Of a DNA stretch of 64,000 bases, positions 4,102 through 13,113 are shown piece by piece. The position numbers and the translations under genes are program-made. The stretch's first letter is position 1, and each line of letters opens with the position of its first letter. This DNA comes from a virus. The notes beneath the pieces are model-generated. The model searched no databases, was not told the origin of the DNA, and worked only from the letters and a program-made list of their open reading frames with translations. The stretch lies in UHGV virus genome UHGV-1362809; one strand, given 5' to 3'.

Positions 4102-4632
4102 TTATTTTACCTTTTCAAAGGAAATAAGATTTTCTAATCTAAAAGACCTAAATGCAGGAGGATCTAATTTAGTATCTACAACTTTGACTACATTAGGGTT
4201 GGACTTAATTGGTTTGCCCGATTTAGAACCTTTAAACATATAGTCAGCTACATATTCAGGAGATAAAGAACCGTACATGATACGAGTTTTACCATCCAAT
4301 TTCTTGAATTTTATTTTATAGGTTCCTTTTTTAAAGGCTTCCGTTATTTTGCGTTTGGTCAAAGCCTGCTTACGAATGTTGGAAAATACCTTTTTGGCTC
4401 TGTCGGCACCACTAAGGGGCTTAGACTTAACCTTAGCATTTTTAACATTTTTAGCATTTAAAGCCCTTGTTTTCAACATCTTAGCACGTTTCAACCATTT
4501 AGCATCTTTACCATACTTAGAGTGAGGATGCTCTTTAATATATTTAATTTGTTGCGTAGGGGTTAAAGCTTTAAAAGATTCTTCACTTAAACCTCTTGAT
4601 GCTATACACATCAATCTGTCTAATAGTTTCAT
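4102..4632 (-). CDS. virion-region paralog, family B. Conserved N-terminal module (LDRL...RGLSEE.FKALTPTQQIKYIKEHPHSKYGKDAKWLKRAKMLKTR). Divergent Lys-rich C-terminus.
   Basis: N-terminal ~65 aa are near-identical to 8049..8996, with about 85% nt identity over 4470..4560 vs 8800..8890. Confidence 0.6.
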   Translation of the reverse strand: MKLLDRLMCIASRGLSEESFKALTPTQQIKYIKEHPHSKYGKDAKWLKRAKMLKTRALNAKNVKNAKVKSKPLSGADRAKKVFSNIRKQALTKRKITEAFKKGTYKIKFKKLDGKTRIMYGSLSPEYVADYMFKGSKSGKPIKSNPNVVKVVDTKLDPPAFRSFRLENLISFEKVK

Positions 4633-4645
4633 TCCCGCACCTATA

Positions 4646-5071
4646 TTAAACTAAATCTTTGTACTTTTTATTTATAAAAGATATAACGTCCTTTACATCT
4701 TTATCATACATCGCAGTATATACTAAATGATCCATATAGTACTTACTTCTGGAGTCGCTAAGTTTGTCAGCTAATTTCCAGTCTTCATTGTCAATAGCCT
4801 GTTTCTCAGCTTCCAACTTTTTGATATAAATTTTTATTTCACGTTTGGTGTCGTCAGCTAGCTTATTAAGGGCTTTTGAAAACCCATCAACTGGTTTAAC
4901 CTTGAGCGCATACTTAGGGTCTTTTGCAAAACGAGAATGAGGACGGTCTTTAATATATTTTTTACGCTGAGATTCTTTCATACCGCCCCAAGTACCGTCA
5001 GAAATACCACGAGATTCCTCTACTTCGGGTTTTATACCAGCAACAGTTTCTAATCTATCTAAAGCTTTCAT
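4646..5071 (-). CDS. virion-region paralog, family A. Conserved N-terminal module (MKALDRLE.VAGIKPE.EESRGISDGTW.GM...KYIKDRPHSRFAKD).
   Basis: N-terminus near-identical to 12442..13113 at both protein and nucleotide level. Confidence 0.6.
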   Translation of the reverse strand: MKALDRLETVAGIKPEVEESRGISDGTWGGMKESQRKKYIKDRPHSRFAKDPKYALKVKPVDGFSKALNKLADDTKREIKIYIKKLEAEKQAIDNEDWKLADKLSDSRSKYYMDHLVYTAMYDKDVKDVISFINKKYKDLV

Positions 5072-5082
5072 TGTATTTTACC

Positions 5083-6210
5083 TTATACTAAAAATTGTGT
5101 TCTAAACAGGCGAGTCAACATCCAGGAACTTGTAAGTCTTACAGAGCTATTAGTGGAGGGCGTAATAGCAACACTAAGAACACCAGCACTACTTGTTCTA
5201 ACTAAGTTATCTTTAATTTTTGACAGGTTTTCATCAATATATTTACCTGCTTCATTCATTTTTTCTCTGATATGTCCAGTACGGTCAACTTCTAAGCTCG
5301 TTGACGCTCCCGTAAAGTTGAAGGCACTCATACCCTCAGCTAATGCCCAAGCAGAAAGGGCTTCGTACTCTGCACATTTCAAAAGCATATATTCCAAATA
5401 CTTAGGAAGTTGTTGCAATGACCAACCAGTCAAAATAGGAGGAGCGGAATTAATACGAGCTAACCCCAACAGTAAGAAGCAGCACAGTTCTTGGTCAGTA
5501 AATCTCAGGTTTGGATTGATGTCATAATTGCGAGCCTTATCCATAACACGCTTTAATGCTGCTACATACATAACCGTCTTTGTAGTGCATACATAAACCA
5601 TGTGGAATTCTGTATTTATAGGATTTGTAGGAGATGAGTATTTCCAAGTAACAACAAATGGGTAAGACCCTATATTTACAACCTGTTTTTGAATTTTAGG
5701 AATAACCACACCAGCATTGTAATCTACAATGGTACTGTTATTTAATTTACGAGTAGTAAAGTGCGCTGGGTCTGAGTCGGAGTGCAACAGCGTTCCATTT
5801 TCGTCTGTCAATGTGATTGAAAAGTTTGAACACCCGTCAGGAAGTATAATCATATCTGAAAATAAATCAGACGACATCATTATACTGGAGGAATCAAATA
5901 TAGGAGCTTCACCGTCTAATAATACTGTAAAAGTATCCGTATTTTGATATTGTTTACCATTTACCGTAGCTCTCCAAATTAAAGAGTACTTGGAGTCAGG
6001 TTGCACTGGACAATCTTCTGGTAAAGTAAAAGTAGCGATCCACTGCTCAGGGTGGTCTATATTTTGAAATGCTATACCATTTATAACTTGGTTGTTTTCA
6101 TAGTCTAGGACAGTCCAAGTCGGTGAATCCTTGAATACTAAAACATCTTGGTCAATAAAAACAGTAGTAGCTGTAGTGGGTTGACCCCTTACAACATTGT
6201 TCAGCTGCAT
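5083..6210 (-). CDS. hypothetical structural-region protein (375 aa)
   Basis: ORF track. Position among virion genes. No motif. Confidence 0.4.
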   Translation of the reverse strand: MQLNNVVRGQPTTATTVFIDQDVLVFKDSPTWTVLDYENNQVINGIAFQNIDHPEQWIATFTLPEDCPVQPDSKYSLIWRATVNGKQYQNTDTFTVLLDGEAPIFDSSSIMMSSDLFSDMIILPDGCSNFSITLTDENGTLLHSDSDPAHFTTRKLNNSTIVDYNAGVVIPKIQKQVVNIGSYPFVVTWKYSSPTNPINTEFHMVYVCTTKTVMYVAALKRVMDKARNYDINPNLRFTDQELCCFLLLGLARINSAPPILTGWSLQQLPKYLEYMLLKCAEYEALSAWALAEGMSAFNFTGASTSLEVDRTGHIREKMNEAGKYIDENLSKIKDNLVRTSSAGVLSVAITPSTNSSVRLTSSWMLTRLFRTQFLV

Positions 6211-11670: not shown

Positions 11671-11673
11671 AAA

Positions 11674-12273
11674 CTATTTCAACTCCATTAAGTATTTGTT
11701 TAAATCATTTTCTATCTTTTTAAGAACTTCCTTGATATAAACACCATGGTTTTGCAACAAAGTACTTAGTTTTATATTTAGGCGGTTAGAATCTTTTTTA
11801 TCCAGCTCCAGCTTCCCCCACCGTTTAACGTCCTCTAATTCTTCAGCCAAATTTTGAATTATATACCGAATAGAATTATAAACAATATCATTTTGTATAT
11901 AATCGACTTGCGTACTCAGATCTGAAATGGAACGAATAGCGTCCATTAATTCTACCGCTTTAGTCACAAGTCCTGTGTAGACAAAACTGTTATTACCAAG
12001 AAAAGGATTCTTTAAATAAGTTTTTTCCGCAACAGGTATTAAGGAGATTGTAGTTTTAAGCATTGTATGTAAAGCTTTTAGTGTTACAGCATCAGACTTT
12101 ACGTCAACACCTTTCTTCTTTAATTTTTTGATTAGCTTTTGATAATCACTGTCAAACTGCTTCATTTCTGAAGAAATATCGGAGTACCTTTTTTGCGCAT
12201 TTTCTACTGACTTGTTGCGGTGGTTTTTATGTTTGGCACCTGTATTTTCTTCGCCTAATGCTTTTTTAACCAT
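11674..12273 (-). CDS. hypothetical coiled-coil protein
   Basis: ORF track. Confidence 0.4.
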   Translation of the reverse strand: MVKKALGEENTGAKHKNHRNKSVENAQKRYSDISSEMKQFDSDYQKLIKKLKKKGVDVKSDAVTLKALHTMLKTTISLIPVAEKTYLKNPFLGNNSFVYTGLVTKAVELMDAIRSISDLSTQVDYIQNDIVYNSIRYIIQNLAEELEDVKRWGKLELDKKDSNRLNIKLSTLLQNHGVYIKEVLKKIENDLNKYLMELK

Positions 12274-12441
12274 CGTGTTTCTCCTGTCTAAAGCTGTTGC
12301 AGTTTAAGTATCTCAATAAACTATTTACCTACCTTGAGTTAAATTAAAGGGGAGCAGGTGCTATAGGCATTACAAATACCTGTTCTATAGCCTACCCCCC
12401 CCACTTATAGTACTTGGTACACTTACCTATTCCATTTTTAC

Positions 12442-13113
12442 TTAGTCATAACGCTTTAAATAATGAAGAAGTTTCTCATGGGAACCATTTTTTGCTGATG
12501 CACCACGGGAGCGGGTTGACTTATTATTCATTTCTGGATGTTTATCATAAAGACTTTCATCGTCTTTTGGATATTTTGCGGCTCTTGATCCAAAACCAAA
12601 TAACTTTTTATAAACTTTATTTAGTTTAGCACTGCCCTCTAGATCTTCTGTACCGTATGCAACATTAGACATACCTTTAGATAATAAACCTAATAAAAGA
12701 GCATCATTAAGGTTTTTATTAGAAGAGTCAAACTTTTTAAAGTAAGCTTTAATTTCTCCAACAGATTTATCGTCTAAATCTTTATTTTCGATGTCTTTTA
12801 TTATATCAAAGGCTTTAGACCAAGTTTTGTCATCAAAGTCAAAACCACAACGCTTAAAATCCACTGTTTTTTCAATTTCATCTCTTGTCAAGGGTCTAAA
12901 CTTATTGTTCGTTGGAGTATTTTTAACTTTTTTAACAGGTTTATTAGATTTACCGCCTAAGTCTTTGGCAAAACGAGAATGAGGATGTTCTTTAACATAT
13001 TTCCTACGTTCAGAACTATTCATACCATTCCAAGTACCGTCAGAAATACCACGAGATTCTTCGATTTCAGGTTTAACACCTGCTACTACTTCTAATCTAT
13101 CTAAAGCTTTCAT
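12442..13113 (-). CDS. virion-region paralog, family A (223 aa)
   Basis: N-terminus MKALDRLEVVAGVKPEIEESRGISDGTWNGM...KYVKEHPHSRFAKD, matching 4646..5071. Confidence 0.6.
   Translation of the reverse strand: MKALDRLEVVAGVKPEIEESRGISDGTWNGMNSSERRKYVKEHPHSRFAKDLGGKSNKPVKKVKNTPTNNKFRPLTRDEIEKTVDFKRCGFDFDDKTWSKAFDIIKDIENKDLDDKSVGEIKAYFKKFDSSNKNLNDALLLGLLSKGMSNVAYGTEDLEGSAKLNKVYKKLFGFGSRAAKYPKDDESLYDKHPEMNNKSTRSRGASAKNGSHEKLLHYLKRYD

Follow-up and report, generated by a model that had tools for sequence, protein, structure and literature searches.

To our knowledge, the choice of phage proteins that are enclosed in the head or injected is known in detail only for the capsid-targeting sequence (CTS) of T4, and is guesswork for jumbo phages and polyvalent proteins. 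The T4 CTS is a linear element of about 10 amino acids (aa), MKTYQEFIAE. A conserved N-terminal capsid-associated domain followed by variable C-terminal effectors is reportedly found in the MuF-fused polymorphic toxins of temperate phages, as Jamet and colleagues are said to have described in 2017. The T4 internal proteins Ip1-3 share nothing but their N-terminal packaging leader, are encoded in a genomic hotspot and act as injected anti-restriction proteins (PMC12373910, PMC3012670), and the lysines of the T4 internal proteins contact DNA. In phage SPN3US, the paralogues gp53 and gp54 have identical cleavable N-termini (PMC5694885). Besides, RelA/SpoT, 2H and InPase domains were listed as confined to phage-type polyvalent proteins, and these proteins were argued to be co-delivered with the DNA (Iyer, Burroughs, Anand, de Souza, Aravind 2017; PMC5512222). 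Here, we analysed 64,000 nucleotides (nt) of the virus genome UHGV-1362809 (hereafter the window), which sit within a metagenomic contig of ~237 kb from a jumbo phage, and describe in them a family of five genes whose products share an N-terminal module.

The five genes are best explained as a family of accessory head-associated cargo proteins composed of four parts: a leader, a helical core, a Lys-rich helix or linker and an exchangeable payload. Our preferred reading, with a probability of roughly 0.55, is that the module serves as a tag by which hypervariable cargo is loaded into the capsid or delivered, a tag analogous rather than homologous to that of the T4 internal proteins. As in T4, otherwise unrelated small basic proteins have only an N-terminal element in common, several copies per genome lie in or near the head genes of a phage that encodes a prohead protease, and the loci are hypervariable between close relatives (three of five slots in the comparison below). 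Unlike the T4 CTS, however, the window module is 45-65 aa long, has a folded helical core that also occurs internally and in tandem, and shows no sequence similarity to the CTS by inspection; moreover, it is found in numerous uncultured phage lineages that are unrelated to each other. By analogy, the T4 family would be the functionally closest system, while membership in it fails on leader homology and size. The MuF toxins are alike in concept, with their conserved N-terminal part and variable C-terminal effectors, yet no window member contains a Pfam MuF/SPP1 gp7 domain and the module is about ten times smaller. As for SPN3US gp53/gp54 and phiKZ gp93-95, these too are paralogous head proteins with (near-)identical N-termini that bear protease motifs, and their member number varies from one related phage to another (PMC5694885). 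They are, however, homologous over their full length (pfam12699) and abundant structural or ejection proteins, whereas the window family shares only the module, for which no Pfam match was found.

The original prediction, made from the window's letters alone, had named a family of four genes with a shared N-terminal module. All four open reading frames (ORFs) are intact and lie on the minus strand at the predicted positions (g12442, g8049, g4646 and g4102; Table 1), and a fifth, degenerate copy, g6303, has to be added. Likewise, the two related modules that had been distinguished both exist, but alignments identify them as subtypes of a single module, A-type in g12442 and g4646 and B-type in g8049 and g4102. 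The nucleotide identity in the shared segments, put at about 85%, amounts to 84.9% between g4646 and g12442 (152 nt from the ATG) and 84.5% between g4102 and g8049 (116 nt). A repeat finder independently paired 4919-5075 with 12961-13117 (83% over 157 nt) and 4469-4593 with 8800-8924 (82% over 125 nt), and returned a 38-nt leader repeat common to three module genes. Conservation begins exactly at the ATG, the DNA upstream of the module genes being unconserved. At the codon level, 35 of the 51 module codons of g4646 and g12442 are identical, with five synonymous and 11 non-synonymous differences, as are 28 of 45 in the g4102/g8049 pair. Since synonymous differences between the paralogous modules are so few, their sequences point to recent duplication or gene conversion.

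Beyond the module, the proteins part ways, as had been predicted: pairwise local BLOSUM62 scores of their C-termini range from 23 to 43, which we read as the level of unrelated sequences, judged without a shuffled control. All five are basic (isoelectric point, pI, 9.3-10.4) and rich in Lys (14-20% as against 10.3% for the ORFs of the window), most of all directly past the core, where the first 30 residues contain 17-30% Lys. The payload of g8049 was found in just two other clusters when 5.8 billion proteins were searched. That of g4102, which follows the module and a Lys-rich helix, matches Pfam WYL_2 (4.5e-7, above the gathering cut-off) and phrog_1086 (1e-15) and corresponds to a WYL_2/DUF2693 Sm-like beta-barrel; matches in BFVD were weak, concerned the WYL_2 payload only and led to WYL/DUF2693 and 31.1-type phage proteins. 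A profile hidden Markov model (HMM) of the module recognised the module genes with E-values of 1e-21 to 1e-28 and nothing further in the 64 kb; g6303, in which only YLEV..., ...EIF... and EYLKKHPSSKF remain of the module, scored E=1.3e-4 against a model built without it. Sharing of the leader alone by other window genes was considered and dropped, as a leader-only HMM retrieved just the four intact members and its next best matches reached merely E 0.025-0.05.

The module consists of leader, core and Lys-rich stretch, about 45-65 aa in total. Its leader (10-20 aa; 10-15 aa in the family of the window) reads MKxLDRLEVVAG in the window lineage and M-K-h-x-h-x-h-x-A-[SA]-[DG] elsewhere, and ends in a conserved h-x-A-[S/G/D/E]. 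An acidic insert, GVKPEIEESRGIS, separates leader and core in the window lineage, except in g4102, which has no insert; the B-type module of g8049 is made up of the leader MINKILNRLEVLAG, the core and KWLKRAKMLKTR. The core, of 30 aa, carries the signature [DE]-W-W-x-x-[LM]-[ST]-P-E-[EQ]-[QKR]-K-x-Y-[ILV]-K-x-H-P-x-S-K-[YF]-A-K, and a logo of 184 aligned copies gave the consensus h-[SAT]-[DEA]-[DE]-W-W-[DKE]-x-[LM]-[ST]-P-E-[EQ]-[QKR]-K-x-Y-[ILV]-K-x-H-P-x-S-K-[YF]-A-K. In this logo, H is kept in 170, S in 172 and Q/K/R in 183 of the 184 copies, whereas Y and P are invariant because they served as alignment anchors. Among the proteins found by profile search, Lys makes up 20.6% of the 30 aa after the core, compared with 12.4% overall. 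AlphaFold2 modelled the isolated module with three short core helices (predicted local distance difference test, pLDDT, about 80) and a low-confidence leader. For full-length g4102, mean pLDDT was 81 over residues 11-20 and 95-97 over residues 21-60, blocks of ten residues between positions 11 and 100 averaged 80-97, and the model contained a leader helix (residues 2-12) and a long Lys-rich helix (residues 44-69). The core is thus confidently predicted to be a small helical fold. Given its size, this predicted fold and the existence of internal and tandem copies, the module looks more like an adaptor domain than like a purely linear cleavable signal. The interpretation put forward initially is partly supported: a common N-terminal element with variable payloads is borne out, and more strongly than could be seen from the window's letters.

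No known domain, enzymatic or other, matched the module: Pfam, PHROG and NCBIfam contain no family for it, and neither a profile search against the PDB nor Foldseek returned a significant match. Several likenesses were examined and set aside. DUF7167 (PF23768) gave at best 15 bits (E 0.027) with a window module, compared with a gathering threshold of 24.4, and only over the W..LS.E half; membership was ruled out on this sub-threshold score, and the proteins that truly match DUF7167, P0113 and P0142, are devoid of H-P-x-S-K (P0xxx denotes module-bearing protein clusters, L0xx phage contigs or loci that we compared). HMG-box chains in the PDB matched weakly (E 0.13-0.36), and an HMG box was ruled out given these values, the missing Foldseek match and the fact that no window protein has a Pfam HMG match. 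A 'W..LTPEQ' likeness to OmdA and DUF3106-type proteins was dropped, being confined to the first half of the motif and not significant, and the resemblance of VLAGLGITAD to LAGLIDADG was judged superficial in view of its different register and the lack of an endonuclease fold or Pfam match. Nor did we retain the idea that the adjacent FtsK-like ATPase might recognise a signal of the WXG100/type VII kind, as the Gly after W-x is unconserved. Taken together with the searches below, these results make the module a widespread phage domain that had not been described before.

How labile the payloads are became apparent from a close relative, the 59-kb contig L014, whose DNA backbone is 96-97.5% identical to the window and whose flanking proteins show 96.5-100% identity. 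Of the five slots, three are occupied differently in the two, with another payload, no gene or a replaced gene. In slot 1, L014 encodes the same module on an unrelated protein of 271 aa; DNA colinearity is lost at window position 12962, where the module has its last codon (…RFAKD), and is regained at 12292. In this one case mapped at the DNA level, the breakpoint coincides exactly with the module's 3' edge. In slot 2, g8049 is absent, and 190 nt of intergenic DNA (L014 14079-14270) keep a vestigial leader, 'ATGAGAGCTTTAGATAGATGCC…', so that the spacer looks like a deletion scar; the vestigial leader ORF (MRALDRC...stop) is located downstream of a hairpin conserved between both contigs. In slot 3, opposite the decayed g6303 of the window, L014 has an intact 294-aa member that combines an A-type module with a g8049-type payload. 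Slots 4 and 5, on the other hand, are conserved at 96-97%, with g4646 being 95.7% identical to its counterpart. Module subtypes have also been swapped in other relatives, a g12442-type payload being joined to a B-type module in P0010 and a g8049-type payload to an A-type module in P0019, as in slot 3 of L014. To judge from the slot differences in L014 and these subtype swaps, the module loci are dispensable and rapidly exchanged. Payloads are thus exchanged, deleted or replaced between phages of near-identical backbone, and the L014 comparison constitutes a clean payload exchange with one breakpoint at a domain boundary even if the idea of a tag should be wrong.

The module is not restricted to this lineage. 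An exhaustive HMMER scan of 1.84 billion representative proteins retrieved 343 protein clusters at E<=1e-3, 31 of them at E<=1e-10. Among the matches listed (the 150 best of the 343 plus four earlier word-index matches), the module starts within 30 aa of the N-terminus in 118 of 153 proteins, and 28 of 153 carry two or three copies. All of the ten clusters that were looked up are metagenomic, except for gp075 of phages BcepSauron and BcepSaruman, which has three copies. With the 9.2-kb region as query, megablast found no match among 50,697 phage records, and tblastn of the module and eight concatenated variants against the same records found only gp075, although such short motifs are near the sensitivity limit and absence from further isolates is unproven. 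Single-payload fusions join the module to SAM lyase, GNAT, BRCT, RelA_SpoT and WYL_2 domains.

The large module carriers are phage-type polyvalent proteins, in which the core is present two to four times. The largest include P0024 (2530 aa; LPD1, HNH_3 and RelA_SpoT; four module copies), P0039 (a 2H RNA ligase, 2_5_RNA_ligase2, with HNH_3 and Zeta toxin; three copies) and P0052; in these three, a C-terminal effector (RelA_SpoT or Zeta toxin) follows ~110-140 aa past a module copy. Further carriers of this type contain InPase (P0143) or topoisomerase IB (Topoisom_I; P0043 and P0045). Polyvalent proteins thus share with the window family the W-W...Y-x-K-x-H-P-x-S-K core, beside LPD1, RelA/SpoT, Zeta toxin, 2H ligase, InPase, HNH and Topo IB, and have a module copy ahead of each effector; judging by this arrangement, they look as if they were concatenated 'module + payload' cassettes. 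The module itself is distinct from LPD and the other Pfam models that match polyvalent proteins. Unlike polyvalent proteins, which comprise two to fifteen effector domains, the window proteins measure 141-315 aa and have at most one recognisable payload (WYL_2); as each carries a single payload, they are not polyvalent themselves.

Scanning IMG/VR with degenerate DNA patterns of the strict module consensus revealed 17 loci, 10 of them on contigs >140 kb, and most copies with a visible N-terminus begin ~10-25 aa after the start Met. Five loci contain tandem arrays of two or three module genes (L023, L025, L026, L027 and L032; four of these contigs measure 170-295 kb, L027 13 kb), whose C-termini are mostly divergent, while the L025 pair is homologous over its full length (C-part score 682). 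At two loci, L020 and L029, a protease homologue is encoded 1-3 kb from the module genes. In L006 (JGI Ga0066600_10000040, 1420-10210), nine small genes start with MKITAQEKQLILKRRxVxA[ED] or a close variant and then diverge, as do two further genes with a more diverged leader; two genes of this leader family run on into the W…HP core. The L006 family indicates that the leader can occur without the core, closely mimicking the situation of the T4 CTS.

In the window, all module ORFs are co-oriented with the structural genes. In the order of transcription, the block starts with the gene of the terminase large subunit, which harbours an intein, and the portal gene (25937-27940), followed by virion and tail genes, the tail tube gene and an M15 endolysin-like gene. 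It continues with a homing endonuclease gene, the prohead protease gene, g12442, four genes, g8049 and a Dps-like gene, and ends with the gene at 6875-7525, g6303, a connector homologue, g4646, g4102, the gene at 3622-4101 and an FtsK-like gene. Because this order places the module genes among head and tail genes, with terminase, portal, tail tube, protease and connector in the same block, the label 'virion region' that had been given to them was justified. The protease, with g12442 as the first gene on its 3' side, is 37-40% identical to proteins of PaBG, Erwinia Y3, P. putida Aura and BcepSauron that carry annotations as head maturation or prohead core proteases and, in the same range, to a relative in Vibrio GR7B; it had no direct sequence match to any solved structure. 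The linkage with the connector recurs elsewhere, with no more than about 5 kb between module genes and a phrog_17327 homologue in four other lineages (L004/L005, L006, L011 and L012), and homologues of the phrog_17573 protein are found near module genes in L004/L005 and L011. A search with BcepSauron proteins did not identify a major capsid or scaffold gene in the window.

Table 1. Features of the window that are discussed in the text (positions refer to the 64,000-nt window).
Feature	Coordinates	Strand	Length (aa)	Description
g12442	12442..13113	-	223	Slot 1; A-type module, residues 1-51 (DNA 12961-13113); orphan basic payload
g8049	8049..8996	-	315	Slot 2; B-type module (DNA about 8800-8996); orphan payload
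g6303	6303..6878	-	191	Slot 3; degenerate fifth member; payload Cys- and Lys/Arg-rich
g4646	4646..5071	-	141	Slot 4; A-type module (DNA 4919-5071); short helical payload
g4102	4102..4632	-	176	Slot 5; B-type module without acidic insert (DNA 4469-4632); WYL_2 payload, residues 95-170 (DNA about 4123-4350)
Prohead (head-maturation) protease	13253..14038	-		phrog_18299, 1.2e-70; directly upstream of slot 1
Head-tail connector (head-to-tail joining) homologue	5083..6210	-		phrog_17327, 7.4e-28; module genes on both sides
Gene between g12442 and g8049	11674-12273	
Gene between g12442 and g8049	10762-11670	
Gene between g12442 and g8049	9940-10740	
phrog_17573 protein of unknown function	9066..9878	-		Fourth gene between g12442 and g8049; second conserved neighbour of module genes
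Hairpin	9026-9056	-		GC-rich; between phrog_17573 gene and g8049
Homing-endonuclease-like gene	14058-15416	-	452	DUF7487, phrog_3339, HNH; between M15 endolysin-like and protease genes
Dps/ferritin-like 'DNA binding protein'	7522-7959	-		phrog_3636, 9.5e-7; in head block, between two module genes
FtsK/SpoIIIE-like ATPase	780-3545	-	921	Long Lys/Glu-rich tails; ends the block

From these observations, we infer the following course of events for a capsid-loading or delivery tag. By means of the module, the protein would attach to a conserved part of the growing prohead, possibly its core or scaffold, the portal or the connector protein encoded nearby, and the late-made cargo would become enclosed in the head, where its Lys-rich segment may lie along the DNA. 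The prohead protease, whose gene is directly upstream, is a candidate processing enzyme for the leader and might trim it, either after h-x-A-[D/E] before the WW or, in the window lineage, at [IVL]-E-E|[AS]-R-G. At the next infection, the cargo would then exit together with the DNA and could act early, e.g. against host defences. Extending this beyond the window is more tentative, and we rate at somewhat below even odds that the module serves many uncultured, mostly jumbo, phages as a portable cargo tag for capsid loading and co-injection and marks the units of polyvalent proteins, too. If it does, the module would be the packaging or processing determinant that polyvalent proteins have been missing. 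Besides, if it is a loading tag, the handling of multi-effector proteins would find an explanation, metagenomes could be mined directly for candidates of injected effectors, new anti-defence proteins among them, and a second, folded tag would be at hand for putting foreign proteins into phage heads. Irrespective thereof, the module is a searchable sequence handle that links protease-adjacent hypervariable genes, paralogue arrays of jumbo phages and the internal boundaries of polyvalent proteins.

Several observations weigh against a loading tag of this kind. Not all members share the candidate cleavage motifs, and the copies in polyvalent proteins read LLAALGITADWW at this place, with no Glu. 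The leader is without similarity to the T4 CTS, and a link of the window's protease to T4 gp21 was not found by direct sequence search (Pfam, structures). Internal and tandem copies imply that a free N-terminus is not needed, unlike for a classical CTS, and since such copies exist, the module should be a folded binding domain rather than a purely terminal linear signal. Dps-like, FtsK-like and homing endonuclease genes are interspersed in the module region, and position alone is therefore no proof of a virion role. Finally, the only cultured carriers found are BcepSauron and BcepSaruman, whose gp075 is annotated as a hypothetical protein.

What else might the module be? The basic character of all members, the Lys-rich stretch directly past the core and a first motif half reminiscent of the HMG-box pattern W..LS.EEK..Y would fit a nucleic-acid-binding element, the family then being DNA-associated accessory proteins that coat, condense or protect DNA, packaged or not. 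Payloads such as the WYL_2 Sm-like barrel, BRCT and Topo IB are in line with this, and so are two kinds of neighbour, the Dps-like gene of the window and, in L004, tiny basic proteins resembling protamines. However, the HMG likeness is not significant, with the outlier P0142 providing the sole Pfam HMG_box match, and DNA binding leaves unexplained the strong N-terminal bias, the leader and the fusions to enzymes that do not act on DNA, such as RelA/SpoT, Zeta toxin, InPase and SAM lyase. We consider this account unlikely, though it is compatible with packaged cargo, as T4 internal proteins contact DNA too. Still less probable, it seems to us, is that the proteins are not cargo but paralogous parts of the prohead core or scaffold, comparable to gp22, gp67 and gp68 of T4 or the inner-body families of phiKZ and SPN3US, which the large head would need for its construction and which would then be degraded or stay on as structure. 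Granted, g12442 comes right after the protease, the usual place of scaffold genes, giant phages do have paralogous inner-head families with common cleavable N-termini (PMC5694885), and neither a scaffold nor a major capsid gene was recognised in the window. Yet the loss of g8049 in L014 despite 100%-identical neighbouring head genes contradicts it, an essential scaffold would not tolerate payloads being swapped for unrelated sequences as in slots 1 and 3, and the payloads either are orphans or, like WYL_2, exist as small phage proteins on their own.

The effector-like payloads, the occurrence in polyvalent proteins, the Acb1 neighbour mentioned below and a hypervariability typical of arms-race genes might instead suggest a host-directed docking domain that brings unpackaged effectors to a common host target (RNA polymerase, ribosome, membrane or a defence hub). 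To this possibility we give just as little credence as to a scaffold: genes of a late head-morphogenesis block are ill-timed for taking over a host if their products do not travel on into the next cell, synteny is conserved with the connector protein rather than with early genes, and a host-binding motif would be expected to vary by host, whereas the core is nearly invariant across very different phages. Very improbable, lastly, is that the conserved 5' segment is a mere recombination anchor or gene-conversion tract, i.e. the boundary of a mobile cassette, encoding a protein module with little function. The breakpoint at the module end, the subtype swapping and the low synonymous divergence of the paralogues speak for such an anchor. 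But hundreds of only remotely related phages, whose DNA is unrelated, conserve the module as a protein, including its Y, H, P and S positions and a confident predicted fold, and the conservation sets in precisely at the ATG.

Some additional features of the module-bearing loci deserve mention. In relatives of the window phage (P0012, P0018, P0020 and P0037), the module is fused to Cys-containing leucine-rich-type repeats (…LTSLEGAPEKVGGNFxC…), for which no matching Pfam family surfaced in our scan of the module members. The 73-kb phage contig L011 encodes Acb1, an anti-CBASS phosphodiesterase (PF23474; 11704-12246), directly downstream of the two-copy module protein P0033. Around the module gene and connector homologue of L004, a 174-kb phage contig, five genes (8035-8295, 9702-9995, 12059-12322, 12367-12624 and 12686-12994) specify tiny protamine-like, Arg/Lys-rich proteins, whose composition suggests that they may be DNA-condensing head proteins. 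In the window, the FtsK/SpoIIIE-like gene is situated one gene (3622-4101) downstream of g4102 and is syntenic in L014. The hairpin in front of g8049 (GACCCTTCT…AGAAGGGTC), kept in L014, is probably a terminator that sets g8049 apart as a unit of its own. The homing-endonuclease-like gene, in turn, is missing from the near-identical L014 and hence represents a recent insertion. Intein/LAGLIDADG signatures were detected in the terminase large subunit, the regions listed being 28221-31751, 37715-39415, 49982-51379 and 62221-63972 on the minus strand; the NrdD and helicase ORFs start with C-terminal halves of an intein splicing domain, and an ORF of 583 aa matches LAGLIDADG_3. The genome of the window is heavily colonised by selfish elements.

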